64,000 bases of DNA from positions 129,702 to 193,701 of the forward strand of contig CAZCYZ010000001.1 of the NCBI GenBank assembly GCA_964503465.1. The letters are read 5' to 3'. This document shows, piece after piece, positions 221-17,553 of the stretch. The notes below the pieces were generated by a model, which was given only the letters and a program-made list of their open reading frames with translations, was not told the DNA's origin and did no database searches. Positions within the stretch are counted from its first letter, which is position 1. Each line of letters starts with the position of its first letter. The stretch comes from an uncultured Gammaproteobacteria bacterium (lineage in GTDB: Bacteria > Patescibacteriota > Microgenomatia > UBA12405). Position numbers and translations under genes: made by a program.

Positions 221-1132
221 ATGAAAATTATTGCTCTAATCGAGGCCCTACGCCCATTTCAGTGGATAAAAAATCTTAATCTATTTGCTGCTGCTATTCT
301 TAATGGCAAGCTCTTTGATCCACCAGTTTTTATTCAAAGTCTTATTGGTTTCTTGGTTTTTTCAGCACTATCATCTTCGTCATATTTGATCAATGATCTT
401 GTTGATATGGAACGGGACAAACTCCATCCCTTCAAGAAATTTCGTCCTTTAGCCAGGGGTGACGTTTCTCCAATTCAAGCAATCATTGTTTCATTTGGGT
501 TATTTTGTTTTGCCATTTTGGCTTCTCTTTATGTTAGTTTTGGTTTTTTCGTTCTTTCCCTTATTTTTATTATCATGCAATATTCTTATTCATTCGTATT
601 TAAACGTCGAGCCATTTTAGATATCATTGGCATTTCTCTCTTTTTTATCATTCGGGCTTTTGCTGGTGAAATTGCCACTGGTTACCATCTTCCTGTCTGG
701 ACTATGCTAACGGTTATTTTTCTCTCTCTTTTTATTGCCAGTGGTAAGCGTCGAAGTGAGCTGGTTAGAAGTGGCGTTAAAACTAGACAAGCACTCCAGG
801 GTTACGGTAAAAGTCTCCTTAACTTTTACACCACCATGTTTGCCGTCTGTACTTTGGTTACTTATGCTATGTACACTTTCTTTGCTGAACCTATTAGGTT
901 CCAGGGAATAATTCATCATTTCCTGTTAGATAATTTTCCTGCTGCCCTGGATCGTAAGTGGTATATGGTCACGTTGTTGCCGGTAATATTTGGCATCATG
1001 CGTTATGGCCAAATAATTTTTGAAATGGAAGAAGGGGAGAGGCCCGAACGTGTCGTTACCACCGATATTCCCCTGTTGATGTCAGTTCTTACTTGGGGGC
1101 TAATGATGATCACCATTATTTATGTTCTCTAG
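221..1132 (+). CDS. UbiA-family polyprenyl-phosphate transferase, decaprenyl-phosphate 5-phosphoribosyltransferase-like
   Basis: Polytopic membrane protein. Asp-rich motif NDLVDMERDKLHPFKKFRP matches the NDxxDxxxD-R-HP-K-RP signature of UbiA/DPPR-synthase-type prenyltransferases. Confidence 0.55.
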   Translation: MKIIALIEALRPFQWIKNLNLFAAAILNGKLFDPPVFIQSLIGFLVFSALSSSSYLINDLVDMERDKLHPFKKFRPLARGDVSPIQAIIVSFGLFCFAILASLYVSFGFFVLSLIFIIMQYSYSFVFKRRAILDIIGISLFFIIRAFAGEIATGYHLPVWTMLTVIFLSLFIASGKRRSELVRSGVKTRQALQGYGKSLLNFYTTMFAVCTLVTYAMYTFFAEPIRFQGIIHHFLLDNFPAALDRKWYMVTLLPVIFGIMRYGQIIFEMEEGERPERVVTTDIPLLMSVLTWGLMMITIIYVL

Positions 1133-2648
1133 TATCGTTCTCTTTCTGTTAACCCTATTTACTCGTTTTTTTGGATTTAATTGGGGTAATGGTTTTTTCT
1201 TCCACCCAGACGAAAATAACATGGCCACAGCTATTACCCAGCTGTCTTGGCAAAACCTTAATCCTCACTTTTTTGCCTATGGCCAATTTCCGCTATATCT
1301 TGGTTATTTTTCCCTCAAAACACTTGGACTTGCCAACACCTTTTTCAATTCTGTTTATATTCTCCGTTTTTGGTCAGCTGTCTTTTCCTGTTTCTCTATT
1401 TTGTTTTTTTACCACATTTGTAGATCAAAAATTTTTACCTTGCTATTGGTCTTTACCCCGGGATTAATTCAGTTAGCTCATTTTGGAACCACTGAAAGTC
1501 TGTTGATCTTTGTCTTTGCTGTCAATCTCTATTTGAGCCAACTTATTATTCGCAGCCCCAAACCAAAATATTTTTTTTTGGCCTCTGTTGTTACCGGAAT
1601 CGGTCTGGCTACCAAAATCTCTGCAATTATATTTATTACTCCCGTTCTTCTGGCGACTCTGTTTAACAAAGATAAAAACAAGCTCCACCTCCTATTGTTT
1701 ACTATCTACTGTTTACTGTTCACCTTTCTCTTCTTTATTATTTTCTCTCCATATAACCTAATTGCTCATGCTGACTTCCTCTCATCTCTTCACTACGAGA
1801 CTCAAGTTGCCACTGGCAAATTACCAGTTTTCTACACTAATCAATTTCTTCACACCTCCCCATATTTTTTTCAATTGACCAAGATATTCCCCTACATTGC
1901 TGGTCTTCCGATGTTTATTTTCAGTTCCATAAGTTTTTGTCTTATTCTTAAGTCATATTTCATAGATCGCAAATCATTTAACAACTTAACTATCGTTTTA
2001 CTTTCTTGCCTAGTTTATTTTTTATATTTTGGCCAGGTCTATACCAAATGGACCCGTTTCATGTCCCCCATCTTTTTCATTTTTCCGTTCCTGACGACCG
2101 TCTTATTAGAAAAAATAAATAATATAAATAAAAAAAATATTTTTATTACTTATCTAAATAAGTTTATTATAGTTTTGTCAATTATTCCCGGCATTATGTT
2201 TATGAAGATCTATTTTCAACCCGATGTTCGTCTTATTGCCAGTCGATGGATGGTTCAAGCCATTCCTGCTAATTCGAAAATCCTCTCTGAAGCCGGTAAT
2301 GTAATCAATCTTCCTATAACTGACTTGCCCGCCGCAACCGACCATCAATTACAAGTCACCAATTTTGATTTCTACAACCTTGATACCAATACCAACCTTC
2401 AACCAAAATTGACTGACCAGATTGGTCAGTCTGATTACATTATCATCCCTTCTCGTCGAATTTTTAAAAATCAAAATAATTCCAATTTTCCTGTCTCTCA
2501 ACAATATTACCAACAGTTATTTTCCGGCCAACTCGGTTTTAGTCAAATTAAACAATTTTCTGTTTTTAATGACGAAAACGCCGAGGAAACCTGGTCAGTC
2601 TTCGATCACCCTGTAGTTAGAATTTTCCAAAGAAATTACTACGATTAA
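1122..2648 (+). CDS. GT-C superfamily glycosyltransferase (ArnT/PMT, GT39/GT83-like; polyprenyl-phosphate-sugar dependent)
   Basis: About 12 TM segments. First periplasmic loop FGFNWGNGFFFHPDE carries the conserved DE motif of PMT/ArnT. Paralogous to 4363..6063 (YGLNWDQGYHLHPDE). Start overlaps the upstream gene. Confidence 0.55.
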   Translation: MFSSIVLFLLTLFTRFFGFNWGNGFFFHPDENNMATAITQLSWQNLNPHFFAYGQFPLYLGYFSLKTLGLANTFFNSVYILRFWSAVFSCFSILFFYHICRSKIFTLLLVFTPGLIQLAHFGTTESLLIFVFAVNLYLSQLIIRSPKPKYFFLASVVTGIGLATKISAIIFITPVLLATLFNKDKNKLHLLLFTIYCLLFTFLFFIIFSPYNLIAHADFLSSLHYETQVATGKLPVFYTNQFLHTSPYFFQLTKIFPYIAGLPMFIFSSISFCLILKSYFIDRKSFNNLTIVLLSCLVYFLYFGQVYTKWTRFMSPIFFIFPFLTTVLLEKINNINKKNIFITYLNKFIIVLSIIPGIMFMKIYFQPDVRLIASRWMVQAIPANSKILSEAGNVINLPITDLPAATDHQLQVTNFDFYNLDTNTNLQPKLTDQIGQSDYIIIPSRRIFKNQNNSNFPVSQQYYQQLFSGQLGFSQIKQFSVFNDENAEETWSVFDHPVVRIFQRNYYD

Positions 2649-2656
2649 TTCACCCT

Positions 2657-4366
2657 ATGGTTAAACTAATTCACCAATTTCCACTGACGATTATTGGTGT
2701 CATTCTCTCTATCGTCTCCTTTGCCATCTCTTCTCCTACGCTTGGGTTAAACCAACTAGCTTTTTGCTATTTTCTGTTGTCAATATTACTGATCTTTTTT
2801 GATTATGTTCGAGCGCATGTCACCATTCGGCAGTTGTCAATACCAACTCGGTTGTTTTGGTTCGTCCTTGCCCTAGCTTTTGTATCCAGACTCTCTTTAC
2901 TTACCAGTTACCCTTTTGTTTCAGTTGGTGACCAGCTTCGTGATGGTGGTCTAGACGCCCAAAAAATTGTCAACCAGGAAATTTCAAATCTTTTCGAGTC
3001 TGGAGCTTACAATGCTCATGGACTAATCATTCCCTGGTTCTCCAGTTTGTTCTATCTCTTTATCGGTCCCTCAGTTCTAGTTTATCGAATTCCTGCTGCT
3101 CTTATTTCAATTCTTGACATTATTGCTATTTTTATTTTTGTCAAGTCAATTAAAGGTACCTGGTCAGCATTCTTTAGTAGTCTTGTCTTAATAGTCCTCC
3201 CCCTCCATCTTTTTTACGGCCGGACTGAATTAGTTGTTATTTTTAGTAGTCTGATGGCCACACTCACCCTTTTCACCGTCTATCATTTCTTTGCTCGGCC
3301 AGGTTATCCACTTTACATTCTCTTGGGATTAATAATTGGTTTCTCCTGGAATTTTCATGGCGGAGTCAAGGCCTTCACTATTCTTGTTGCTATTTTTGTG
3401 GTAACCAGAGACCTAATAACCATCGTTACTAAATTGTTATCTAAACAGTCAATTAAAAGTAATCTAATTGGGTTAACTCTATTGGCTGGTTTTCTTATCA
3501 TTGGCTTTGGGCCCAAAATTATTTTTACTAACCAACAGGGATTTGTCCATGCCTCTCGCTTTAACTCCAATAATCTAAGTTTAAATACTCTCACTAATAA
3601 TTATCTTAAGTCCCTTATGGTTTATTTTTATGAGCCAACCAATAGTTGGTATCCTGACCATCAGCCCATTTTGGTACCAATATTTGCCCTGTTCTTCCTC
3701 CTTGGCATCGGCAAAATCATCTTTCTTTCCAAAAATATTTTTGATTGGTTTCTGATATATCTGATTTCTTTAACCCCTTTTACTAACAGTACTATTACCG
3801 ACATCCTCAATGCCGACCACCGCCTGGTTCCTCTACTCCCCGTAATAGTTATCATTATTGGGATAGGAATTGATTATATTCTTGATTCCATTAGTACTAC
3901 TTCTCTCAAGCGTATTTCTACTATTACCCTGTCACTTTACATAATACTAGTCGGGATTCATTTTTTTATCAAGCGACCTGCCGACATTAATGACTATGTC
4001 AATCAAAAACAGGACCTAAAGGATTACCTGTCAATGCATCTTATTTATTTTCTTCGGTCCCAACCTTCGTTTACTATCTCCCCGAACCTTTGCATTTCTG
4101 CACCACCAGCTAACTATCCGAACTATATCTTGACCCACTACCAAGAGCAATATCAGTATTTTTTTCCTCACACGGTGGTCGGAGTAGAAGAAAATCCCAC
4201 TCTTACTGATAGTGAAATAATGATTACTCCTTCCGCTTGTTCATCATTATCCCCCAGTCCAAAAGACTATCAAATTTCCCAAATAGACTGTTCCAGGGAT
4301 AATTTTTTCACTTGTCCGCACGACTATTTAGGTAAAATGAAAATTTATTACCCTTTGTCATTATGA
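2657..4366 (+). CDS. Polytopic membrane protein, probable divergent GT-C glycosyltransferase
   Basis: 569 aa, highly hydrophobic, in tandem between two GT39-like genes and overlapping the next gene by 4 nt. Lacks the clear HPDE motif. Confidence 0.4.
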   Translation: MVKLIHQFPLTIIGVILSIVSFAISSPTLGLNQLAFCYFLLSILLIFFDYVRAHVTIRQLSIPTRLFWFVLALAFVSRLSLLTSYPFVSVGDQLRDGGLDAQKIVNQEISNLFESGAYNAHGLIIPWFSSLFYLFIGPSVLVYRIPAALISILDIIAIFIFVKSIKGTWSAFFSSLVLIVLPLHLFYGRTELVVIFSSLMATLTLFTVYHFFARPGYPLYILLGLIIGFSWNFHGGVKAFTILVAIFVVTRDLITIVTKLLSKQSIKSNLIGLTLLAGFLIIGFGPKIIFTNQQGFVHASRFNSNNLSLNTLTNNYLKSLMVYFYEPTNSWYPDHQPILVPIFALFFLLGIGKIIFLSKNIFDWFLIYLISLTPFTNSTITDILNADHRLVPLLPVIVIIIGIGIDYILDSISTTSLKRISTITLSLYIILVGIHFFIKRPADINDYVNQKQDLKDYLSMHLIYFLRSQPSFTISPNLCISAPPANYPNYILTHYQEQYQYFFPHTVVGVEENPTLTDSEIMITPSACSSLSPSPKDYQISQIDCSRDNFFTCPHDYLGKMKIYYPLSL

Positions 4367-6063
4367 AAAAATTATCCAAAAATTATTTGACGACTATATT
4401 CATTTTCTTCGTGGTGTTGCTAGTCAGATTCTACGGCCTTAATTGGGACCAAGGTTATCATCTCCACCCAGACGAAAGAATGATATCTATGGTAGTTGAT
4501 AAAATTAAACTACCCCAAAGCTCAAACATTGGTCAAATATTTTCCCCCGATTCTAGTCTCAACCCGAAATTTTTTGCCTACGGTTCATTCCCCATCTACC
4601 TACTCAAAACGGTCTCTTCCATTTTTCCCTCCAATTCCCCCTACTCCCAGTATCAAGCCAATAATCTACTTGGTCGGGGCCTGTCAGCTATAGCCGATTC
4701 GGTTTCGGTCGTTCTAATCTACAAAATAGGGCAATTACTTTTCACTTCCCAAGTTGGTATTTTAGCCTCTTTAATTTATGGTTTTGCCGTTCTTCCATTC
4801 CAACTATCGCACTTTTACGCCGTCGACACTCTTTTAAATTGTTTTATTTTATTTACCATTTATCAACTTTGCCAACTCTACCTTCATCGTCGTCCTCTTA
4901 ATGCAATCTTGACCGGTATAGCATTTGGGCTATCTTTAGCTACCAAAATCAGTGCTACTGTTCTACTGGCATCTATTGGAGCCACCTTCTTAGTTGAGTT
5001 TTTACTCTACCTTGTCAAAAAAAATCCCAAACCATCACTCACCTCACTCCAAAATAACACTCTTCTCTTGCTACTAGTATTTCTCGTCACCTTTACCACT
5101 TTCTTCATTTGTCAGCCATTTGCTTTTTTTGACTTTCCAACCTTTTGGAACCAAATTAATGAACAAAAAGCCATGACTCGAAACGCTTTTGTTTTTCCCT
5201 ATACTCTTCAATACGTCTTTACCCCCCCATATGTTTATCAGCTTAAAAATATTTTCTTATGGGGATTTGGACCCATAGCCACAATTTTTGGGCTGTTAGG
5301 ATTTGTTCTCTCTTTAATTAAACTAATTAAAAATCTTTTTATTCCTGGCAATGACACCAAAGAGGGACTACTCCTAATAGTTTTTACCTTTTGCCTTGGC
5401 TATTTTCTTGTTGTTGGCTCCTTTGCGATTAAATTTGTGCGTTACTGTCTTCCGCTTTATCCATTTTTAGCTATCTTTGCCGCTTGGACTATTTTTTCTG
5501 CCCCATCAATTATTATTAAGAAAATCCTTCTAGTAATACTCATGCTATTTCAGCTTAGCTGGTTTTTGGCCTTTACCCATATTTACTCTCTCCCCAACAC
5601 CCGAGTCGAAGCCAGTAATTGGATTAACCAAAATATTCCCAAAGGTAGTCTTATCCTTCGAGAACATTGGGACGATGGTTTACCGCTTTTTGATTCCAGG
5701 CAATTTCGATATCAAGATCTAGCTCTTTACGACTCCGATCTTAATCCCAACAAATGGGCCCAAATTCAATCACAGCTAACTCAAGCCAATTATCTTATAG
5801 TTGCTAGTAATCGTCTTTATACTCCTCTTTTAAAGTTAACAAATTGTGAAGTTCTCCCGCCAGGAAAATGTTACCGCCAAACTGCTCAATACTACCAAGA
5901 TCTTTTTTCAGGTAAGCTGGGTTATCAACTAGTTGCTGAATTTGCTAGATTCCCAAGTTTTCTTGGAGTTGATATAAATGATCAATCAGCCGACGAATCC
6001 TTTACCGTCTACGACCACCCCAAAATAATGATTTTTAGGAACACTCAACAATCACATGAATAA
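4363..6063 (+). CDS. GT-C superfamily glycosyltransferase (ArnT/PMT-like), paralog of 1122..2648
   Basis: YGLNWDQGYHLHPDERMIS loop-1 motif, ~12 TM, FAYGSFP motif shared with its paralog. Confidence 0.55.
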   Translation: MKKLSKNYLTTIFIFFVVLLVRFYGLNWDQGYHLHPDERMISMVVDKIKLPQSSNIGQIFSPDSSLNPKFFAYGSFPIYLLKTVSSIFPSNSPYSQYQANNLLGRGLSAIADSVSVVLIYKIGQLLFTSQVGILASLIYGFAVLPFQLSHFYAVDTLLNCFILFTIYQLCQLYLHRRPLNAILTGIAFGLSLATKISATVLLASIGATFLVEFLLYLVKKNPKPSLTSLQNNTLLLLLVFLVTFTTFFICQPFAFFDFPTFWNQINEQKAMTRNAFVFPYTLQYVFTPPYVYQLKNIFLWGFGPIATIFGLLGFVLSLIKLIKNLFIPGNDTKEGLLLIVFTFCLGYFLVVGSFAIKFVRYCLPLYPFLAIFAAWTIFSAPSIIIKKILLVILMLFQLSWFLAFTHIYSLPNTRVEASNWINQNIPKGSLILREHWDDGLPLFDSRQFRYQDLALYDSDLNPNKWAQIQSQLTQANYLIVASNRLYTPLLKLTNCEVLPPGKCYRQTAQYYQDLFSGKLGYQLVAEFARFPSFLGVDINDQSADESFTVYDHPKIMIFRNTQQSHE

Positions 6064-7111
6064 CAATATCTATATTCAACCAATTTCTCCTTCCACTGTT
6101 ATTTCTGACTATCAAAAGCTTCTTGCCAAGCTTCCTAAACCACAAAACACCCCAACCGTCATTAAATTGAATCTATCATGGACTAAGTTTTATCCAGCTG
6201 TTTCAACTCCACCTTGGCACTTTGATGCCATTCTAAAGTGGCTGATTGATTCCGGAGTTTCCCCCTCAAATATTATTCCAGTTGAGAACCGTACTGTTGT
6301 CACTAAGGTCGAAATTGGTGCCCGAAATCATGGTTGGACCAAAATTGCCAAAAAATACGACGTTAAGCTTCACTACCTCACCAAAGAAAAATACATTGAA
6401 TACCGTCCCAAGTCAAAAATGTTAGTTCTTGACCAAATTTTCCCTGACGGAATTCTTCTCCCGGAAGTAATAATGGATAAACCCCTTATTACTCTGTGCA
6501 CACTTAAGTCTCACGTGTTTACCACCATCACCGGTGCTATCAAAAATTATTTTGGCATGCTTAATACCAATCGTCATTTTTGTCATCGCCGTATTCACCA
6601 AACTATCATTGATCTTCTTCAGATCCAGCGGGAACTCCATCCCCAAATCTTTGCCGTGATGGATGGTAGTGTTCTTGGTTTTGGGCCTGGCCCTAGGGCC
6701 ATGGAGTGGGAGCCAGCCAACCTTGCCCTGGCCAGTTGCGATGAAGTTGCTCTTGATGCCACTGCCGCCAGAATCATTGGTTTTGATCCCAGTCAAATAG
6801 AATTCATCAAGTTAGGGCACAAAATGAAACTGGGCAATATGAACCCTACCTATTCACATTCCTTGCCAAATTTTCACCACTCCGTTCGCAAAGATACTTT
6901 CGCCTCCCGCGGGCAAAAATTTATTTATCACCATCTCCCTGAATGGTTTGAAAAACTAATTCTTCGAAGCCCTATTGCTCCTTGGTCATACGCCGCCTCA
7001 AACCTTTACCATGATGGTTACTGGTACAATTTTGTTGGCAAAAATCGATTGAGTGCTTATCTTCGGTCTGATTGGGGCAAACTGTTTAAAAATTACGTTC
7101 CTCGTGATTAG
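6056..7111 (+). CDS. DUF362-family protein
   Basis: N-terminal VIKLNLSW (IKPN-like) and TLCTLKSH...TGAIKNYFG motifs typical of DUF362. Paralog at 14964..15872. Confidence 0.45.
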   Translation: MNNNIYIQPISPSTVISDYQKLLAKLPKPQNTPTVIKLNLSWTKFYPAVSTPPWHFDAILKWLIDSGVSPSNIIPVENRTVVTKVEIGARNHGWTKIAKKYDVKLHYLTKEKYIEYRPKSKMLVLDQIFPDGILLPEVIMDKPLITLCTLKSHVFTTITGAIKNYFGMLNTNRHFCHRRIHQTIIDLLQIQRELHPQIFAVMDGSVLGFGPGPRAMEWEPANLALASCDEVALDATAARIIGFDPSQIEFIKLGHKMKLGNMNPTYSHSLPNFHHSVRKDTFASRGQKFIYHHLPEWFEKLILRSPIAPWSYAASNLYHDGYWYNFVGKNRLSAYLRSDWGKLFKNYVPRD

Positions 7112-7670
7112 GAAGTTACTATTCTGGCAGCCTTCCATCGATTGTTATCGTCTACTTTCCCAACATCGTTACGGCCAATCCTTCTTAGTGGCCACCAACT
7201 ATTTAATTTGGTTTTTCCTTTTCTTTGTTTCTTATTTGCTAATAAAGCAAAATACCAACGTTTTTTGGCAACTGCTCCTGGCCACCATTACTAGTGAAGT
7301 CATTGAGAAAATAGTTAAAGTCAAAAACCTATGGAAAAGACCAGCTTTTGCCAATGGTAACCAGATCCCTAATGGTTTTATTAAGTCCTGGTACCTCAAG
7401 GGCTCTTTTCCTTCTGGTCATACCATCAAAGCCGTTTTCTTTCTGTTGTTCATCCTTCAATATTCAGTCATATCCCCATTTGTCTATTTGGCTGTCGTTG
7501 TTCCCTTGTTATTAATCAGGGTTATTTGTGGTTTTCATTATCCCGTTGACATTCTTGGTGGGGGTATAATTGGTGGTTTAATTTGGGTCATGTTCAATCA
7601 CATTTACGCCCCCGAATGGCTAAATCAGATTATTTCCCAAATTTTTAATTTCGTTTTTTTTATCAAATAG
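7053..7670 (+). CDS. PAP2-family phosphatase (polyprenyl-diphosphate/phospholipid phosphatase-like)
   Basis: All three PAP2 motifs are present: KVKNLWKRP (Kx6RP), FPSGH, and RVICGFHYPVD (SRx5Hx3D). Annotated start is GTG at 7053 and overlaps the upstream gene by 59 nt. The true start may be a downstream GTG/TTG (e.g. ~7104). Confidence 0.6.
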   Translation: MLIFGLIGANCLKITFLVIRKLLFWQPSIDCYRLLSQHRYGQSFLVATNYLIWFFLFFVSYLLIKQNTNVFWQLLLATITSEVIEKIVKVKNLWKRPAFANGNQIPNGFIKSWYLKGSFPSGHTIKAVFFLLFILQYSVISPFVYLAVVVPLLLIRVICGFHYPVDILGGGIIGGLIWVMFNHIYAPEWLNQIISQIFNFVFFIK

Positions 7671-7674
7671 TCTC

Positions 7675-9732
7675 TTGACTATGTTTTCTGATCTAAAGTT
7701 TATTATTCTCTGGTGGTTTGTTATTTTAACTTGCGGCCTAGCCGTACTTCCTCTTACTCTTCGCCTGTTCTCCAAATTTTGGGATCGGGGATATGTTTTC
7801 GCCAAAATTATTTCTCTAGGATTGACAACATACCTCGTTCTAGTTCTTGGAATTTTTAAAGTTCTACCCTTCACCATTCCGGTTATTCTAGCTGTGTTGA
7901 TCGTTCTAGCTGCTGCCAGTTACAAACTCAATCCCCATTTTTTTGATGATTTACAAAAGAAATATCCGATTTTCGTCATCGAAGAACTGGTCTTTTTACT
8001 AATACTCATTGCTTGGTCTTATATTCGTGGTTTTGCCCCCGATATAGAAGGTCTCGAAAAGTACATGGACTGGGGTTTTATTAATTCTATGCTCCGGACC
8101 AAGTTTCTTCCGCCCATTGACATGTGGTTTGCCAGTGAGCCCATTAATTATTATTATTTTGGCCATCTAATTTTTGCCCTGATCACCAAGCTTTCTAATA
8201 TTCCTTCGGCTATTACTTACAATCTTTCCATCGCCACCGTCTGTTCATTAACTTTCGTTTCCACTTTTTCCTTGGCCTCAAATCTTGTCTCTTCTACCCT
8301 CAAAAAGCCCCGAGTTAAAACTATTATTGTCGCCGGTCTCATCTCCGCTATTATTCTTACATTTGGTGGCAATCTCCATGCTGTTTACAAGATTATCAAA
8401 ATCAATATCAACGATAACGGTCGTTTGACGTTAACTCCCGAGGCCATTACCAAATCCGCTCATGCATATTGGTATCCCGACGCTACTCGGTTTATTGGTT
8501 TTGATCCAGACATCAAAGATAAAACTATTCATGAATTTCCTCTCTATAGCTTTGTAGTTGCCGATCTTCATGGCCACATGAACGACATTCCGGTTATCCT
8601 ATTTTTTATTGCCTTTCTGTTTTCAAGTTTCATTAGTTTTCCTAGTGTCAAAAACCTCTTTAATTGGTTTCTAATTATTCCCTCCGCCCTCACCCTTTCA
8701 ATTGCCTACATGACCAATGCCTGGGATTTTGCTGTTTACGGCCTCCTTTTTGCTATTTCTCACTTTCTTATCTACTTTCAATCTACTCGTCATAAATTAT
8801 TTGAAACTGTCATCAAAACTTTTGTCAACGGAGTTGCAGTTATCATCTTTTGGTATCTATTTACCTTGCCTTTCTCCCTCAATTTCGTTCCCATGGCCCA
8901 AGGTTTAATGCTTTCTGACTCTCGCTCACCCTTTTATCAATTGTTTATTCTTTACGGTGGTTTTTGGCTTATTTGCTTGCCTTTTTTGTTCATTTTTTTG
9001 CAAAAGAACCAAAAGTTTCAAACGGCCGACCATTTTGTCCTTGCCCTGATAATCACCGCCACCATTCTCATTATCATCCCTGAGATTGGTTATCTAAAAG
9101 ACATCTATATCTATGAACATCGTCGAGCCAACACCATGTTTAAACTCGTTTACCAGGCATTTATCATGTACTCTCTCTGTTCAGGTTATATCCTAATTCG
9201 TTTATCAAAACATTTACTCTATCGCATATTATTTGTCATTATCTTTGTCTGTCACCTTCTTTACCCCTATTTTGCCATTCGTTCTTATTATGGTTTTCGC
9301 CAATACCGAGGCCTTTGGGGTTTAAATTATCTTCAAAATCTTTATCCTGACAGCTTGGCTGCTGTTGATTGGCTCAACGCCAATGTTACTGGTCAGCCGG
9401 TAATCCTTGAAGCAGTAGGGGACAGCTACACTACTTTTAATCATGTTTCATCGGCCACTGGTCTGCCCACTATTGAAGGGTGGGTAGTTCATGAATGGCT
9501 CTGGCGTGGCGGTTACGACCAGCCCGGAGCCAGATCGGCTGAAGTCCAAAAGATATATGAATCGACCAACCTTACCGAAGTTCAACAGTTGCTTCAAAAG
9601 TATAATGTCGAATATGTTATTGTTGGTCCCAAAGAGGTTGAGAAATATAAAGACCTTAAAGAAGACAACTTACTAAACCTGGGGGCAAAAGTTGTCTTTC
9701 AAACCGGTCAAACCAAAGTTTATCGACTTTAA
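7675..9732 (+). CDS. DUF2298 / 'Chlor_Arch_YYY' family integral membrane protein (putative GT-C-like glycosyltransferase)
   Basis: 685 aa, highly hydrophobic, contains the diagnostic EPINYYYFGH 'YYY' motif. Confidence 0.5.
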   Translation: MTMFSDLKFIILWWFVILTCGLAVLPLTLRLFSKFWDRGYVFAKIISLGLTTYLVLVLGIFKVLPFTIPVILAVLIVLAAASYKLNPHFFDDLQKKYPIFVIEELVFLLILIAWSYIRGFAPDIEGLEKYMDWGFINSMLRTKFLPPIDMWFASEPINYYYFGHLIFALITKLSNIPSAITYNLSIATVCSLTFVSTFSLASNLVSSTLKKPRVKTIIVAGLISAIILTFGGNLHAVYKIIKININDNGRLTLTPEAITKSAHAYWYPDATRFIGFDPDIKDKTIHEFPLYSFVVADLHGHMNDIPVILFFIAFLFSSFISFPSVKNLFNWFLIIPSALTLSIAYMTNAWDFAVYGLLFAISHFLIYFQSTRHKLFETVIKTFVNGVAVIIFWYLFTLPFSLNFVPMAQGLMLSDSRSPFYQLFILYGGFWLICLPFLFIFLQKNQKFQTADHFVLALIITATILIIIPEIGYLKDIYIYEHRRANTMFKLVYQAFIMYSLCSGYILIRLSKHLLYRILFVIIFVCHLLYPYFAIRSYYGFRQYRGLWGLNYLQNLYPDSLAAVDWLNANVTGQPVILEAVGDSYTTFNHVSSATGLPTIEGWVVHEWLWRGGYDQPGARSAEVQKIYESTNLTEVQQLLQKYNVEYVIVGPKEVEKYKDLKEDNLLNLGAKVVFQTGQTKVYRL

Positions 9733-10290
9733 ATGAAAAATAACTCTGCTCTCAAGATTCTTTTTCTCTACAACTCAATTTTCGTTTTTGCTAACAATCT
9801 TATTGGCCCACTTTTTGCTCTTTACCTTCAAGGTTTTCATTCCAGTACTGTTACTATTAGCTTTACCTGGGCAGTTTTTGTTTTCTTTACGACCATTTTT
9901 ACTTATCTTTTTTCGAAGTTTGGCGATCGAATTAAAGAACAAGAATATACCCTTATGGCCGGCTTCCTTATTCGTTCCATCGTCTGGTTTCTCTATATTT
10001 TTACTGATTCACTCTCGATGGTGGTTGTGCTTCAAGTTGTTTTGGCCTTGGGGGAAGCCTTGGGTTCTCCAAGTTTTGACACCATCTTGTCTCAACATCT
10101 CGACGATGGTAGTCAAGTAGCCGAATATTCCACCTGGCGAGTCATGGCCAATTTATCAATGGCCCTGGCCACCATCATCGGTGGTTTTGTTGTTGCCAAG
10201 TTTGGTTTTCAGGTTTTATTTGTTGTTATGTCTCTTTTGGGTCTTTTTGCTTTTTTTGGCGTGCTCTCCAAACCCCGGGAGTTGCTGTAA
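9733..10290 (+). CDS. Small ~6-TM membrane protein, half-MFS-like
   Basis: 185 aa hydrophobic ORF starting 1 nt after the previous stop. Weak resemblance to an MFS half-transporter. Confidence 0.3.
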   Translation: MKNNSALKILFLYNSIFVFANNLIGPLFALYLQGFHSSTVTISFTWAVFVFFTTIFTYLFSKFGDRIKEQEYTLMAGFLIRSIVWFLYIFTDSLSMVVVLQVVLALGEALGSPSFDTILSQHLDDGSQVAEYSTWRVMANLSMALATIIGGFVVAKFGFQVLFVVMSLLGLFAFFGVLSKPRELL

Positions 10291-12193: not shown

Positions 12194-13201
12194 ATGATTA
12201 CTCGGATTCTCTATGATGAGGAGAAAGACCAGTACAATGCCGTTGTTAATCATCCTCTTCAAACCTGGGAATGGGGTGAGTTTCAAAAGTCCCAAGGTCA
12301 TAAAGTCTACCGCCTGGGGGTCTTTGATCAGGAAAAACTGATCTCTGGTTACACCATCTCTTTCCACCAAGTTCCAAAAACAAAATATTCAGTTGGTACC
12401 ATTCTCCGTGGTCCGAATATCGACGAAGACTTACTAACTAATGTTTCCAAAATTGCCGTTGATGAAAACGCCATTTTTGTCAAACTCGAACCAGACGTTT
12501 TAAAAAAAAATAGCTCCTACTACTCCTTTTCTAATCTTTTTTCTTCCCCCAAGAGTGCTTTTTACCCCCATTCCCACATCGTCGATTTAACCAGGTCCGA
12601 AGAAGAATTATTGACCCTTTGTCACCCTAAAACTCGCTACAATATTCGTCTTGCTAATCGTCACGGGGTTAAAACTGAAGAAGTTACTACCGATTCTGGT
12701 TTCGAGCAATATCTTAAATTGATTTTTGAGTCCACCAAGCGTCAAGGTTTTTATCTTCACTCTCCCGAATATCATCGCCGTCAGTGGCAGATTCTCAAAA
12801 AAACCCATATCCCCCACATTTTTTTGGCTTCCTATCGAGGTGAAGTTTTGGCCGCCTTTATGACCTTTGTCTTTAGGGATCGTCTGTTTTACCCCTATGG
12901 CGGCACATCGGACAATCACAAAGAAGTTATGGCTCCAAATTTGTTAATGTGGGAGATTATCAAATTTGGTCGATCTCAAAATTTAAAAACCTTTGATATG
13001 TGGGGTAGTCTTGGACCTAATGCTCGGGAGGGGGATAATGGCTTTGGCTTTCATCGTTTTAAACAAGGTTATGGTGGTGAACTAAAAGAATTTGTTGGCA
13101 GTTATGATTTGGTACTTAACATCCAACTTTACAAATTTTACAACTTTATCAATTTAATTCGTTGGTTTCTTCTCCGCCTCAAAGCTAAATTTCTGCGCTA
13201 A
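12194..13201 (+). CDS. FemAB-family peptidoglycan bridge aminoacyltransferase
   Basis: 335 aa. The C-terminal half (MAPNLLMWEIIKFGRSQNLKTFDMWGS) resembles the FemAB/GNAT-fold family. Confidence 0.55.
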   Translation: MITRILYDEEKDQYNAVVNHPLQTWEWGEFQKSQGHKVYRLGVFDQEKLISGYTISFHQVPKTKYSVGTILRGPNIDEDLLTNVSKIAVDENAIFVKLEPDVLKKNSSYYSFSNLFSSPKSAFYPHSHIVDLTRSEEELLTLCHPKTRYNIRLANRHGVKTEEVTTDSGFEQYLKLIFESTKRQGFYLHSPEYHRRQWQILKKTHIPHIFLASYRGEVLAAFMTFVFRDRLFYPYGGTSDNHKEVMAPNLLMWEIIKFGRSQNLKTFDMWGSLGPNAREGDNGFGFHRFKQGYGGELKEFVGSYDLVLNIQLYKFYNFINLIRWFLLRLKAKFLR

Positions 13202-13210
13202 AATATACCC

Positions 13211-13504
13211 ATGTCTTCTGTTATCTCTGACGATCAGTTTCAGCACATTGCCAAATTATCCCGTTTAGAAATAAAACCGGAAGAAAATTTTATCAAGGAT
13301 CAGCTTTCTCAAGCAGCCGAATATGTCGAGGTTCTCAAAGAACTAGATACCACCAGCGTTGAGCCTACCTTTCAGGTAAATCACAAGCAAAACGTTTTCC
13401 GCCAAGATGTTGTAACTGAATCACTAACCCAACAAGAAGCCTTGTCCCAGGCCAAACTTACCCAAAACGGTTATTTTGTTACCACAGCAACCATTAAAAA
13501 ATAA
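13211..13504 (+). CDS. gatC: Asp/Glu-tRNA amidotransferase subunit C
   Basis: 97 aa, directly upstream of gatA, with the typical GatC N-terminus (DQFQHIAKLSRLEI). Confidence 0.7.
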   Translation: MSSVISDDQFQHIAKLSRLEIKPEENFIKDQLSQAAEYVEVLKELDTTSVEPTFQVNHKQNVFRQDVVTESLTQQEALSQAKLTQNGYFVTTATIKK

Positions 13505-13569
13505 TGTTAAGAATCAAGACCTTTTTATTTTTAAGTCTCCCTTGTCAAGGGGAGATTTAGAGGGGTTTT

Positions 13570-14967
13570 ATGAGTGACTTAAACAGACTAACTCTGGTGG
13601 AAGCCCGCCAAGGTTTATTATCAAAAAAGTTTTCTTCTCGTGAACTGATTACTGATTGCTTTTCTCAAATTAAAAAAGTTGAACCTCAATTAAACGCTTT
13701 TGTTTCATTATTCGAAGAAGAATCATTAACCAAAGCCGATAATATCGATCTGTCAAAACCATTGGCTGGTATTCCTGTGGCTGTCAAAGACAATTTTTTG
13801 GTCAAGGACCATCGCACCACCGCTTCAGCCAAGGTCCTTGATAGTTACACTGCTCAATATTCTTCCACTTTTACTCAGCGTCTTGAAGATGCTGGGGCCA
13901 TCATCATCGGTAAAACCAACATGGATGCTTGGGCTCACGGCTCATCTACCGAAACTTCCGATTATGGCCCGACCAAAAATCCTTGGAATACCAATCATCT
14001 ACCCGGCGGTTCCAGTGGTGGCAGTGCTGCAGCCGTTGCTGCTGATGAGTGTACTGTTGCTGTTGGTTCCGAAACTGCCGGCTCGATTCGTCAACCAGCT
14101 GCCTGGTGCGGGGTGGTTGGCTTCAAACCCACCTATGGTCGTTGTTCTCGTTACGGCACTATCGCTATGAAATCCAGCACCGATTCACCTGGACCAATTG
14201 CCAAGACAGTTGACGATGCCGCTTATATCCTTTCGCTTGTTTCTGGTTACGATCCCCACGATGCCACTAGTATCGAAGAAGGCCCGTGGTTAATCCCGCC
14301 ACCTTTAACTTCACTTAAGAATATTAAAATTGGCCTTCCTCTGTCGTATTTTCCTCCGCAAATTCAGCCAGATGTAAAACAGGCAGTTTTAAATTCCACT
14401 GAAATTTTCAAAAAACTAGGTGCTGAAATTGTTGAGCTCCCTGACGTTCTAGATCCCAAATATTCGGTTGCCATCTATACCATTCTTCAACGTTCCGAGG
14501 TTAGTAGCAACCTATCTCGATTTGATGGCATTCGCTACGGTAATGATCGCTCATTTTTTTCCCAAGAGGCCAAACGCCGGATTATGCTTGGAACTTATTC
14601 TCTTTCCGCTGGATATTACGATGCCTATTACACCAAAGCTCAAAAAGCCAGAACCCTCCTCTGTCAGGATTTTGACAAACAGTTTGCCAAAGTTGATGTC
14701 ATTATTGGTCCTACCTCTCCTAGTACTGCTCTGCCTCTTAAGGCCACCGAAGGTCAGGCTATGTTTGGTGAACTCCAAGACATGTTCTTGGAACCATCAA
14801 GTATTGCCGGTCTGGCTGGTATTTCCATTCCTTGTGGTTTTGACACTAACAATCTTCCCATTGGTCTTACTATCGTTGCTCCCCAAAAGCGCGAAGATAT
14901 TGTCTATCAACTGGCCAAAACCTTCGAATCCAACACCGATTATCATCTCCAAAAACCTAAACTATGA
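13570..14967 (+). CDS. gatA: Glutamyl-tRNA(Gln)/Asp-tRNA(Asn) amidotransferase subunit A
   Basis: Amidase signature GGSSGGSAAAVAA and a Ser-cisSer-Lys family. Confidence 0.9.
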   Translation: MSDLNRLTLVEARQGLLSKKFSSRELITDCFSQIKKVEPQLNAFVSLFEEESLTKADNIDLSKPLAGIPVAVKDNFLVKDHRTTASAKVLDSYTAQYSSTFTQRLEDAGAIIIGKTNMDAWAHGSSTETSDYGPTKNPWNTNHLPGGSSGGSAAAVAADECTVAVGSETAGSIRQPAAWCGVVGFKPTYGRCSRYGTIAMKSSTDSPGPIAKTVDDAAYILSLVSGYDPHDATSIEEGPWLIPPPLTSLKNIKIGLPLSYFPPQIQPDVKQAVLNSTEIFKKLGAEIVELPDVLDPKYSVAIYTILQRSEVSSNLSRFDGIRYGNDRSFFSQEAKRRIMLGTYSLSAGYYDAYYTKAQKARTLLCQDFDKQFAKVDVIIGPTSPSTALPLKATEGQAMFGELQDMFLEPSSIAGLAGISIPCGFDTNNLPIGLTIVAPQKREDIVYQLAKTFESNTDYHLQKPKL

Positions 14968-15872
14968 TTACCAGACTTGACTCCACCACTCTTGCCAAAA
15001 TCACTACTCAGGCCGATATGGACGAATTTGTTAATTCCCTTGGTCTGACGACTAATACCGTTATCATTAAGCCCAATTGGGTTGATGGTTGTCTTGGTAC
15101 TCATACCGAAGCAAAAGTTCTTGACCTGTTTTTAGGATCATTAAAAAATAAAAAAATTTATCTTGTCGAAAGTTACACTTTTTGGCGCAATCAAAAATCA
15201 ACCGAAGAAGGGGAGGATTCTTTTTCTTCTTCCGAAGCTCAATTTGATACTGGCCAAAAACATTGGGATTTTTTCAAAGCCGGTGACGACTGGTTTCTAA
15301 GAAACAGTGGTATCGGTAAAGTTATTGGGAAATATGGAATCACCTACATTAATGTCACCAATGAACTTTGGGCTGGCCGGGAATCACCCATCCCTCTGGT
15401 TCCCCAAGTTCTTTACGATCTTCAGGGTTCTGACTTTATTAGTTTTGCCAAACTAAAGGGTGATGGTGATTATGGCGCCACCCTATCTATCAAAAATCTT
15501 TTTGGCCTTTACCCAGACCCGCATCGAATGAAAAAATATCATGGGGAAAATGATGAATTGATAAAAGATTCAATTCTAAAGATTAATCAAACCTATCGGC
15601 CTCTCTTTAAACACTTTTCCATTGTCGAAGGTGTCTATTTTGCCAGTTATGTCCACTGGTCCAAACACATTCATCAAGTATCCCAAGATTTGGGTATTAT
15701 TATTGGTGGTCAAGACGCCCTCCAAGTTGACGACACCGCTCTTAAAATGACCCAAACTCAACCATCCGGATCTCTCAAAACACTTCTGGTTGACTATCAA
15801 AAACTTTTTGGTGGTAACTTCCAGTCTCAAAGTATCCCTTCCGATTACCATGTTGAGTTGTTCAAACTATGA
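14964..15872 (+). CDS. DUF362-family protein embedded in the gatCAB operon
   Basis: VIIKPNWVD... and AKLKGDGDYGATLSIKNLFG motifs. Its start overlaps the gatA stop by 4 nt. Confidence 0.45.
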   Translation: MITRLDSTTLAKITTQADMDEFVNSLGLTTNTVIIKPNWVDGCLGTHTEAKVLDLFLGSLKNKKIYLVESYTFWRNQKSTEEGEDSFSSSEAQFDTGQKHWDFFKAGDDWFLRNSGIGKVIGKYGITYINVTNELWAGRESPIPLVPQVLYDLQGSDFISFAKLKGDGDYGATLSIKNLFGLYPDPHRMKKYHGENDELIKDSILKINQTYRPLFKHFSIVEGVYFASYVHWSKHIHQVSQDLGIIIGGQDALQVDDTALKMTQTQPSGSLKTLLVDYQKLFGGNFQSQSIPSDYHVELFKL

Positions 15873-16159
15873 AAGTCGTTCAATGGTCAATGACTGTTTC
15901 AAACAATTTACATCAAGAATTTATTGAATATTCCCAAAACGTATTAAAACCCACCTGGTTCAAGTTTGGTGCCATCGATTATCGACTTTTTGAAGGAGAA
16001 AATAAGTTTATAGAACAGCTATTCTTCCCAGAAGATTTCAATCCCGAAGAGTTCTTTGCCAAAGTTAAATCCGATCCAAAGGCCAACGAAGTTTCCAAAA
16101 GTTATGAACAACACTTTCAGGCCACCAACATTCAAAAGGAGGTACTAAATCAACTATGA
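15869..16159 (+). CDS. Hypothetical 96-aa protein (possibly ferredoxin-like/ABM-fold), translationally coupled between DUF362 and gatB
   Basis: 4-nt overlaps on both sides. No recognisable motif. Confidence 0.4.
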   Translation: MKVVQWSMTVSNNLHQEFIEYSQNVLKPTWFKFGAIDYRLFEGENKFIEQLFFPEDFNPEEFFAKVKSDPKANEVSKSYEQHFQATNIQKEVLNQL

Positions 16160-17553
16160 CCACCACTCCCATCATCGGACTTGAGGTTCATGTCGAACTA
16201 AAAACCAAATCAAAAATGTTTTGTGGTTGCAATGCCGAGCATTTTCAGCAGCAGCCCAACACCCACACCTGCCCGGTTTGTCTGGGTCTCCCCGGGGCAC
16301 TACCTGTCCCCAACATTATTGCCTGCCAGTGGTGTCTTAAGCTTGGACTGGCCCTCGGTTGCAGTATCAACCAGCATTCTTTTTTTGAGCGTAAAAATTA
16401 TTTTTATCCCGATCTGGCCAAGGGTTATCAAATCTCCCAACTTCAAAAACCGTTTTGCATTAACGGTCAACTAATTATCGATTCCCACTCCGTTCGCATC
16501 AATCGAGTTCACATGGAGGAGGATACTGGTAAATCAGTTCATGTCGGCGACCAGACCCTATTGGATTTTAACCGTTCCGGTGTTCCCTTGGTCGAAATTG
16601 TCTCCGAACCGGATATTAATTCTCCCGAAATCGCTAAAAAATATCTTCAAAAAATTCAGCAAATTGTCCGTTACTTGGGAATTTCTGATGCCGATATTGA
16701 AAAGGGGAGCATGCGTTGCGAACCGACTGTCAATGTCAATATTGATGGCCATTTTACCCCCTTGGTCGAAATTAAAAACGTCGCCTCTCTTACCGGGGTT
16801 CTAAATGCTATCCAATACGAAATTGATCGTCAAATCAAACAATTCGAGACCGATCATCTCGAAAAATCGCCGACCAACAAAACTACCCGTGGTTGGGATG
16901 CTGATAAGCAACAAACCTTTTTGCAACGGGAAAAAGAGGGAAGTGCTGACTATCGCTATTTTCCCGAACCCGATATTCCCCCAGTTGTTTGGTCCGATGC
17001 TGATATTAACACCATCAAATCGACCATTCCCGAACTTCCTGACCAAAAAATTGCCAAATATAAATCCTATGGCCTATCCGATTACGATGCTAATCTTTTG
17101 GCCGAAGACCAGATGTTTGCTGCCACTTTTGAAAAAGTTACCGGTGACCAACCTTCTCCTGAATTTGCAAAGTTTGTAGCTAATTTGTTTATCGGTCCGC
17201 TTAAGGCCATTAATCTTGATCAAGTAAATCCAGTTTATTTCAAAAATCTTTTTGACCACAAGCATGAGTTATCCTCGACGGCCATAAAAGAACTAATCAT
17301 TGAATCACTTTCGTCTAATGTTGACCCTTTAAAAATCGCCGCCGATAAAAATCTCTTTCAGGTCTCCGACACTGATACCATCGAGAAACTTGCCAGGCAA
17401 GTTATCGCTACTAACACCAAGGCAGTTGACGATTATCACAAAAACCCATTGGCCATTGGATTTCTTGTCGGTCAACTAATGAAACTTTCCCAGGGTTCCG
17501 CCAACCCTCAACTGGCCAAGGAAGTACTTGAGAAACTTCTCTCGACTAAGTAA
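16156..17553 (+). CDS. gatB: Asp/Glu-tRNA amidotransferase subunit B
   Basis: IGLEVHVELKTKSKMFCGC...HTCPVCLGLPGALP N-terminus, GatB/YqeY C-terminal domain. Confidence 0.9.
   Translation: MTTTPIIGLEVHVELKTKSKMFCGCNAEHFQQQPNTHTCPVCLGLPGALPVPNIIACQWCLKLGLALGCSINQHSFFERKNYFYPDLAKGYQISQLQKPFCINGQLIIDSHSVRINRVHMEEDTGKSVHVGDQTLLDFNRSGVPLVEIVSEPDINSPEIAKKYLQKIQQIVRYLGISDADIEKGSMRCEPTVNVNIDGHFTPLVEIKNVASLTGVLNAIQYEIDRQIKQFETDHLEKSPTNKTTRGWDADKQQTFLQREKEGSADYRYFPEPDIPPVVWSDADINTIKSTIPELPDQKIAKYKSYGLSDYDANLLAEDQMFAATFEKVTGDQPSPEFAKFVANLFIGPLKAINLDQVNPVYFKNLFDHKHELSSTAIKELIIESLSSNVDPLKIAADKNLFQVSDTDTIEKLARQVIATNTKAVDDYHKNPLAIGFLVGQLMKLSQGSANPQLAKEVLEKLLSTK

Follow-up and report, generated by a model that had tools for sequence, protein, structure and literature searches.

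Two extra genes, a DUF362-family gene and a 96-aa open reading frame (ORF96), lie between gatA and gatB in this patescibacterial gatCAB operon, and both are probably facultative cargo in a variable operon slot, expressed by translational coupling. This reading is supported by the patchy and shuffled distribution of gene content at this position among relatives; the earlier note had raised it as an alternative, an 'unrelated hitchhiker', and it has become the better-supported explanation. The competing proposal, in which the two products are obligate accessory factors made in stoichiometric amounts with GatCAB, was not supported: three related loci lack the insert (L011, L012 and L013), another lacks DUF362 (L006), the cargo varies, and the more distant DUF362 orthologues lie away from gat genes.

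An interrupted gatCAB operon

Here the window denotes the whole stretch of DNA that was analysed (64 kb). The ORF list and the junction sequences bear out the coordinates previously assigned to gatA, DUF362, ORF96 and gatB, and searches of Pfam and NCBIfam confirm that gatC, gatA and gatB are intact, each being full length with all domains present (Table 1); the TIGR00132 score of gatA lies slightly below the cutoff of 481 bits. Because the three Gat proteins are full length, there is no missing domain for DUF362 or ORF96 to complement, and neither inserted gene matches any Gat subunit model in Pfam or NCBIfam. The femX gene ends 9 nt upstream of gatC and is retained in that position in every related Shapirobacteria locus, and the frame UvrD-femX-gatC-gatA-...-gatB-AddA is present in L001, L002, L006, L007 and L011–L013. 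Downstream, a hydrophobic ORF with no Pfam match starts 3 nt past the gatB stop and is possibly the last gene of the gat transcription unit. The hairpin in the gatC–gatA spacer abuts the gatA Shine-Dalgarno sequence, occurs once in the window and is specific to this genome; in L001, L002 and L007 the spacer is replaced by an ATGA overlap between gatC and gatA. An Rfam search for regulatory RNAs in the gat operon, including the hairpin, returned none, and promoter-like sites within the operon were not in excess.

Table 1. Features of the gat operon and its immediate neighbours in the window.
Feature	Position	Strand	Basis
FemAB/FemX-family gene (femX), 335 aa	12194..13201	+	Pfam PF02388, E 4.4e-27
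gatC, 97 aa	13211..13504	+	PF02686, E 7.8e-17; TIGR00135, 69 bits (cutoff 47)
Hairpin in the 65-nt gatC–gatA spacer	13528..13563	+	MFE -26.5 kcal/mol, z -4.0
gatA, 465 aa, complete amidase domain	13570..14967	+	PF01425, E 1.8e-124; TIGR00132, 463 bits
DUF362-family gene, 302 aa	14964..15872	+	PF04015, 47.8 bits (cutoff 24)
ORF96, 96 aa	15869..16159	+	ORF; predicted ABM-like dimeric alpha+beta-barrel (ferredoxin-like) fold
gatB, 465 aa, GatB_N and YqeY domains	16156..17553	+	PF02934, E 2.9e-104; PF02637, E 4.5e-24; NF004012, 516 bits
Hydrophobic ORF, 51 aa	17556..17711	+	ORF list and translation

Since the genome is metagenome-derived, we checked whether the insert could be an assembly chimera, or a set of mis-called ORFs not truly located between gatA and gatB. 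No support for this was found and it is vanishingly improbable: over the 2688 nt of the window at 13539-16226, which span all three junctions, a separate Logan assembly (run SRR8925802; L173) matches at 100% identity, which already refutes a chimera or frameshift, related arrangements occur in five other independent loci, and the insert has a uniform GC content throughout. The reading frames are clean, both genes evolve under purifying selection (dN/dS ~0.07-0.12), their divergence tracks that of the flanking genes, and confident structure models were obtained for both predicted proteins. DUF362 and ORF96 are real protein-coding genes maintained by selection.

Variable content of the gatA–gatB gap

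The arrangement gatA...DUF362...gatB, whose recurrence the earlier note had proposed as a check, does recur, at five additional independent loci (L001, L002, L007, L093 and L094; one JGI contig is listed as both L003 and L093). The synteny is neither unique to this contig nor accompanied by signs of chimerism, and no HMM placed the DUF362 gene in a different family. The genes that share the gap with DUF362 differ from locus to locus (Table 2). On a gatB tree, the loci with an occupied gap are the window, L007, L094 and L002 (and L001); L011 and L012 branch among the DUF362-bearing loci, and L013 groups with L002. Losses are called here on a rough neighbor-joining (NJ) tree of single genes. A divergent allele has taken the place of the gatC-gatA segment in L006, L002, L012 and L013, with the breakpoint near the gatA–gatB junction, and recombination could therefore mimic patchiness.

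Table 2. Genes between gatA and gatB in the window and related loci.
Locus	Gap content
Window	DUF362-ORF96
L001	ORF99-DUF362 (ORF99 belongs to the ORF96 family)
L007	404aa-DinB-like-DUF362
L094	DinB-like-DUF362
L002/L093	DUF362-DUF1706
L006	ORF99-EamA-like-46aa-PIN (PIN toxin pair), without DUF362
L011, L012, L013	No inserted genes

Within the sub-clade, DUF362 is retained in the gat gap despite rearrangements and deep divergence (identity as low as 59-60%), and it evolves about as slowly as GatB. As a counterpoint to the cargo reading, such persistence might be due to a functional link and not to inertia.

Among 60 loci with gatA upstream of gatB, the two genes are directly adjacent in 39, and 15, from other phyla, have a gap of >600 nt, which holds for example EamA, or an NTP-transferase and an aminotransferase with or without a Roc-COR protein. 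In Mycobacterium tuberculosis, pfkA lies between gatA and gatB. These operons resemble the present one in that intact gatA and gatB are split by one or more genes without an amidotransferase function. Here, however, every junction is a 4-nt overlap, with the passengers threaded into the relay rather than placed in an intergenic gap, and the cargo varies between close relatives. A literature search found no paper on gat operon insertions in Patescibacteria.

Overlapping start and stop codons

ATGA start/stop overlaps are present at 14964-14967 (gatA–DUF362), 15869-15872 (DUF362–ORF96) and 16156-16159 (ORF96–gatB). Overlaps of 4 nt occur in 8 of the 44 same-strand gene pairs of the window and in 5 of the 41 outside the gat operon, and against this base rate three consecutive overlaps exceed the genome background. 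The DUF362 gene, which starts inside the gatA stop, and ORF96 each lack a Shine-Dalgarno sequence of their own, so both would be made from the gat mRNA by coupling, a mechanism that we infer from the sequence. A AAGGAGGT motif is located 13 nt upstream of the gatB start, within ORF96.

The same ATGA overlap joins gatA directly to gatB in L011, L012, L018, L019, L021 and L030, all six of the other Microgenomates-type loci in which the genes abut; the two genes are ~150 nt apart in L013. Since the nearest species genomes are among those with the overlap, coupling is older than the insertion, and by this comparison of sequences the gatA–gatB ATGA overlap is the ancestral state. Four-nucleotide overlaps had earlier been taken to imply obligate co-translation with the amidotransferase, but they do not support the further inference of an obligate, stoichiometric accessory factor, given that the overlap is ancestral to gatA and gatB and common in this genome. 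Most internal junctions of the occupied gaps in relatives are again ATGA. Ancestral gatB, starting inside the gatA stop, was probably translated by termination-reinitiation, and a gene landing at this junction would have to keep the relay going, as GatB expression would otherwise drop. Selection for GatB expression may thus be the reason that the overlaps persist and that nearly every junction of the slot is ATGA. As in ATGA-coupled operons generally, translation would proceed by termination-reinitiation with downstream genes lacking their own ribosome-binding site, and no mechanistic difference from such operons is evident at the gat locus, where coupling is predicted.

Predicted folds and relatives of the inserted proteins

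The assignment to DUF362 stood, with PF04015 matched over residues 33-260 of the protein and over positions 1-199 of the 200 in the profile, and the same family is carried by 66 of 66 homologues. A second gene in the window, at 6056-7111, had been called a paralog: it does belong to the same Pfam family but is otherwise distant (BLASTP E 0.03), on which basis a recent duplication of 14964..15872 was rejected. Searches of the literature for DUF362, PF04015 and COG2006 found no characterised function for any DUF362 protein; there, the family appears as an outgroup to LarA and co-occurs with Fe-S and CBM9 domains.

The model of the DUF362 protein has a LarA-like three-dimensional alpha/beta fold, which it appears to share with the LarA/DUF2088 nickel-pincer 2-hydroxyacid racemases (PDB 5HUQ, 7S91, 9EIA and 4NAR), and on this modelling the protein is most likely a cytoplasmic small-molecule enzyme. 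Unlike LarA, it is ~120 residues shorter (302 aa versus 424 aa) and falls short of the full two-domain length (~420 aa). Sequence comparisons did not recover the relationship: Lar_N gave no Pfam match to the protein at E<=1, the DUF362 profile matched nothing in PDB at E<=10, hmmsearch found no match between DUF362 and LarA, and hhalign gave probabilities of 0.1% for the subfamily against LarA1 (sequence verified against 5huq_A) and 0.07% for 127 DUF362 against 10 LarA sequences (LarA from plasmids). The cofactor-binding and catalytic residues of LarA1 are R75, K184 and H200, together with H108 and H174 (PMC11770544). In the DUF362 subfamily, K36, E69, K177 and H193 are invariant and R75 and H100 nearly so. 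The spacing of 16 between K177 and H193 equals that between K184 and H200, but this register is not favoured by a gapless profile scan, in which 140 of 200 shuffles do as well, and the alignment from hhalign, itself non-significant, follows another. We therefore propose no residue-by-residue transfer of the LarA cofactor site, with all profile tests non-significant and two registers possible; as no sequence-level match to LarA exists, the nickel-pincer-binding residues cannot be placed in DUF362.

Orthologues of DUF362 with 38-48% identity in other Patescibacteria occupy unrelated genomic places. These include sites between LysRS and ThrRS (L010), after TsaC and before the D-aminoacyl-tRNA deacylase DTD2 (with 4-nt and 1-nt spacing; L108 and L110), adjoining PNPOx and a D-2-hydroxyacid dehydrogenase, adjoining a deaminase, MazG and ITPase, and adjoining MltG and NUDIX genes, among others.

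ORF96 has no Pfam or NCBIfam family match at E<=1, and 17 of its 48 relatives give only sub-threshold matches to ABM (PF03992; best E 5.8e-4). Its model shows a ferredoxin-like beta-alpha-beta-beta-alpha-beta fold of ~100 aa, and the protein is most likely, as modelled, a dimeric alpha+beta-barrel protein of the ABM type. It would thereby share its fold with ABM and other dimeric alpha+beta-barrel proteins (SnoaB, LsrG, YgiN and NIPSNAP-like), from which it differs in falling below every Pfam threshold and in having no assignable catalytic residues. Both inserted proteins may be enzymes. The ORF96 family is small, its named members are mostly from Asgard archaea, and the archaeal relatives stand alone in their contigs, with no DUF362 in the three Asgard contexts. 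The idea of ORF96 and DUF362 as a general conserved pair was discarded, an ORF96-family gene being near DUF362 only in L001 and L165 among 172 loci.

Alternative explanations

DUF362, with or without ORF96, could instead be a functional partner, specific to this lineage, of GatCAB or of broader aminoacyl-tRNA metabolism; it might act, for instance, on a substrate, a product or a stereochemical by-product of tRNA-dependent reactions and be co-expressed for that reason. Such a role would fit the tightly coupled place that DUF362 has retained in the gat operon of five or more divergent genomes, its conservation at about the strength of GatB and the tRNA-dependent FemX-family gene immediately upstream of gatC. 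However, GatCAB operates without DUF362 in same-clade loci on the gatB tree (L011, L012, L013 and L006). The orthologues beside LysRS and ThrRS or between TsaC and DTD2 also favour a partner, but most other contexts are unrelated to tRNA, and the tally of ~3 tRNA-related among ~11 independent contexts, compared with ~1 expected from a rough estimate of tRNA-gene density in gene-poor, translation-rich genomes, is not significant. Moreover, the predicted fold belongs to a family of small-molecule racemases, no RNA-binding features were detected, and the other gap cargo (a membrane protein, EamA-like, PIN toxin pair and DinB-like) is plainly unrelated to GatCAB. We therefore regard a partner role as unlikely. 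The more specific proposal that the patescibacterial subfamily is a compact LarA-fold enzyme tied to aminoacyl-tRNA metabolism, for which the relay threading is functional, seems quite unlikely; examples of the roles that it might have are stereochemical or chemical proofreading, or salvage, linked to GatCAB, aminoacyl-tRNA synthetases and D-aminoacyl-tRNA deacylase.

Another unlikely alternative takes DUF362 to be a LarA-type racemase or epimerase of a 2-hydroxy acid or related D/L metabolite feeding cell-wall chemistry, its position reflecting the femX and cell-envelope neighbourhood and not GatCAB. The hmmsearch, gapless profile scan and hhalign comparisons all failed to match LarA, the ~120 missing residues count against it, and in these genomes a cell-wall neighbour is often a matter of chance. 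Turning from function to origin, a dedicated exchange mechanism at the gatA–gatB junction, integron-like without a visible integrase, might swap coupled genes as cassettes; order and content are shuffled while the ATGA junctions are kept, gatC-gatA has been exchanged with a breakpoint near the junction in the four loci noted above, and the cargo includes a toxin-antitoxin pair. The 8-mer AACTATGA is present at all three window junctions, which account for three of its four occurrences in 64 kb, but the junctions of relatives do not conserve it, and its total is no higher than chance allows, being reached in 13 of 100 shuffles. The insert shows no GC shift and is not flanked by a recombinase, by attachment-like sites or by notable direct or inverted repeats, and homologous recombination between relatives via the conserved gatA and gatB flanks, with deletion, explains the pattern. 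Cassette exchange is accordingly very unlikely.

Discussion

For the facultative-cargo reading, we propose that, within a single sub-lineage of the Shapirobacteria-like Patescibacteria, the gatA–gatB junction became a variable slot, and that DUF362 and ORF96 would be passengers using a constitutively expressed housekeeping operon, probably neither subunits nor obligate cofactors of GatCAB. For DUF362, whose only structural relatives, as predicted, are nickel-pincer racemases, the locus provides a well-defined subfamily together with a model of high confidence, while ORF96 defines a rare ABM-like family common to Shapirobacteria and Asgard archaea. If a role in tRNA metabolism proved true, DUF362 would have its first assigned function, and a new activity accessory to tRNA-dependent amidation would be added. 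If instead the inserted genes are hitchhikers, operon membership, even with 4-nt coupling, does not imply shared function in the compact genomes of Patescibacteria, and the locus would exemplify passengers forced to keep the relay so that the essential downstream gatB is still translated.

Two genes inserted between gatA and gatB

The earlier note had placed a DUF362 gene and a 96-aa ORF (ORF96) between intact gat genes, with an ATGA overlap at each junction. Its coordinates match our ORF map exactly, the family assignments hold (table below) and ATGA is present in the DNA at all three junctions from gatA through DUF362 and ORF96 to gatB. Misassembly of the insert is excluded: run SRR8925802, assembled independently by Logan (L173), matches positions 13539–16226 at 100% identity over 2,688 nt, all three junctions included, and GC content is even across the insert region. 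DUF362 and ORF96 have dN/dS values of 0.07–0.12 with unsaturated synonymous sites, like gatA, gatB and femX, and are under purifying selection. The two inserted genes are real.

Features of the gat locus and of the second DUF362 locus in the window
Feature	Position	Assignment
Glycosylation cluster	221–10290	UbiA prenyltransferase, three PMT_2 glycosyltransferases, DUF362, PAP2 phosphatase, DUF2298
Second DUF362 gene	6056–7111	DUF362
FemX/FemAB-family gene	12194–13201	directly upstream of gatC
gatC	13211–13504	GatC (Pfam, NCBIfam), full length
gatC-gatA spacer, 65 nt	13505–13569	hairpin
gatA	13570–14967	amidase/GatA (Pfam, NCBIfam), full length
DUF362 gene, 302 aa	14964–15872	PF04015, 47.8 bits (cutoff 24)
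ORF96, 96 aa	15869–16159	no Pfam or NCBIfam match
gatB	16156–17553	GatB (Pfam, NCBIfam), full length
Hydrophobic ORF, 51 aa	17556–17711	no family match
8-mer AACTATGA	14960–14967, 15865–15872, 16152–16159	common to the three junctions

On a crude map of the window's genes, 8 of 44 same-strand neighbour pairs show 4-nt start/stop overlaps, as do 5 of 41 outside the gat operon. The gatA/gatB junction is an ATGA overlap in four Microgenomates-type loci (L018, L019, L021 and L030) and also in the insert-free relatives L011 and L012, so coupling is an old property of the operon that did not arrive with the extra genes. By inspection, no Shine-Dalgarno-like sequence lies within 20 nt of the DUF362 or ORF96 starts; AGAGGGG is found near the gatA start, and AAGGAGGT within ORF96, 13 nt upstream of gatB. 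The 8-mer has four copies in the 64-kb window, three of them at the gat junctions, a total within chance, and was not found at the junctions of relatives.

The gatC-gatA spacer holds a stable, single-copy hairpin, AAGUCUCCCUUG-UCAA-GGGGAGAUUU (−26.5 kcal/mol, z −4.0; no Rfam match), adjoining the gatA ribosome-binding site; relatives have a gatC/gatA ATGA overlap in its place. The 51-aa ORF begins 3 nt past the gatB stop and may encode a small membrane protein closing the operon.

A variable slot in relatives

Scanning 185,579 species genomes with gatB yielded three close relatives (L011, L012 and L013; gatB 59–70% identical) with the frame UvrD-femX-gatC-gatA-gatB-AddA and an empty gatA-gatB gap. 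The UvrD-femX-gatCAB-AddA string is kept in every Shapirobacteria locus seen; characterised FemX/FemAB members are aminoacyl-tRNA-dependent peptidoglycan transferases. The gatA-DUF362-gatB synteny does recur, but within a narrow clade and with shuffled order and content (table below). Occupied and empty gaps interleave on rough neighbour-joining (NJ) trees, implying repeated loss or exchange.

Contents of the gatA-gatB slot (^, 4-nt overlap; ORF99, ORF96-family gene; L003 and L093 are one and the same JGI contig)
Locus	DUF362 identity	Arrangement
Window, L173	100%	gatA^DUF362^ORF96^gatB
L007	86%	gatA^404aa^DinB-like 154aa^DUF362, 16 nt, gatB
L001	72%	gatA^ORF99^DUF362^gatB (order swapped)
L002, L093	60%	gatA^DUF362, DUF1706, gatB
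L094	59%	gatA^DinB-like^DUF362^gatB
L006	none	gatA^ORF99^EamA-like 143aa ... 46aa, PIN^gatB

The 404-aa protein of L007 (3525–4739) has a hydrophobic N terminus and belongs to no family, and in L006 (6888–7437) a 46-aa ORF overlaps the PIN-domain gene, the two looking like a toxin-antitoxin pair. Of 60 diverse loci in which gatA precedes gatB, 39 have the two genes adjacent and 15 have them spaced by >600 nt; sampled gaps contain unrelated genes (EamA; NTP-transferase and aminotransferase, sometimes joined by a Roc-COR protein), so such passengers are of a known kind.

Close relatives carry two deeply divergent gatC-gatA alleles (L002, L006, L012 and L013 versus the window, 13211–14967). Between L006 and the window, femX and gatB are 81–82% identical and gatC/gatA only 40–42%, and an NJ tree places the second gatA type outside other Microgenomates gatA. 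These sequence comparisons suggest that recombination has replaced gatCA and that one breakpoint lies close to the gatA/gatB junction.

The two protein families

Other Patescibacteria, named as Shapirobacteria, Microgenomates and Dojkabacteria, have DUF362 orthologues with 38–48% identity, none with gat genes nearby. Their neighbours are PNPOx-like genes with D-2-hydroxyacid dehydrogenase or 5′-nucleotidase (L004, L005, L096); a cytidine-deaminase-like gene, then MazG-like and ITPase (L008, L100); prephenate dehydrogenase and alanine racemase (L009); LysRS and ThrRS (L010); MltG and NUDIX (L101); 2H-phosphoesterase (L106); signal peptidase (L107); and TsaC and D-aminoacyl-tRNA deacylase (L108, L110), without a common theme. 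A more distant set of ~30 archaeal-looking metagenome loci (L125–L171) has a conserved, apparently archaeal trio of HTH regulator, DUF362-like gene and DUF371 (for example 320, 292 and 143 aa, the last with a 4-nt overlap, in L160, 4005–7373), near a convergent Trm5/TYW2 tRNA methyltransferase and GlmS.

About 20 invariant residues, including K36-P37-N38-W39, E69, D108, T132, W136, K177-N178 and H193, suggest that the DUF362 protein is an enzyme. Its likeness to the nickel-pincer-dependent racemase LarA holds at the fold level only. The LarA cofactor and catalytic residues (R75, H108, H174, K184 and H200; PMC11770544), with the LarA1 sequence verified against 5huq_A, could not be placed on DUF362: hhalign, hmmsearch and a gapless profile scan with shuffles were non-significant with conflicting registers, as was a broader hhalign of 127 DUF362 against 10 LarA sequences.

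The paralog noted earlier in the glycosylation cluster is indeed a second DUF362 gene, though related to the first at family level only. We take this cluster to resemble polyprenyl-phosphate-sugar (arabinan-type) envelope pathways; in such a setting a protein with the LarA fold could act as an epimerase.

The ORF96 family is rare: among 1.84 billion proteins it has 18 representatives, of which one is a repetitive false positive. Its profile has 52 matches, mostly named as Asgard archaea, and members give weak ABM (PF03992)/DUF4286 signals; the predicted structure is a confident model of a ferredoxin-like dimeric alpha+beta-barrel. Archaeal relatives sit in unrelated contexts. On the archaeal-looking contig L165 (1891–3520), a DUF362 gene is preceded, at a distance of 284 nt, by a member of the ORF96 family with 84% identity to P0110. 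This is the sole such pairing outside the Shapirobacteria clade among 172 loci.

Passengers or partners of GatCAB

The best-supported reading is that the gatA/gatB junction, coupled ancestrally, holds a variable slot. If gatB translation depends on an ATGA relay, passengers would have to preserve it, which would explain why overlaps persist despite changed order and content. That the passengers are instead partners of GatCAB or aminoacyl-tRNA, as the accessory factor proposed earlier would be, we consider improbable. Two or three of the approximately eleven DUF362 orthologue contexts are tRNA-related, which is suggestive but not above expectation for translation-rich small genomes; the passengers are not needed to complete GatCAB, and insert-free genomes exist inside the same clade, leaving the accessory factor unsupported. 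What is new under the variable-slot reading is limited: one more instance of operon hitchhiking, and a sharper definition of two uncharacterised families.
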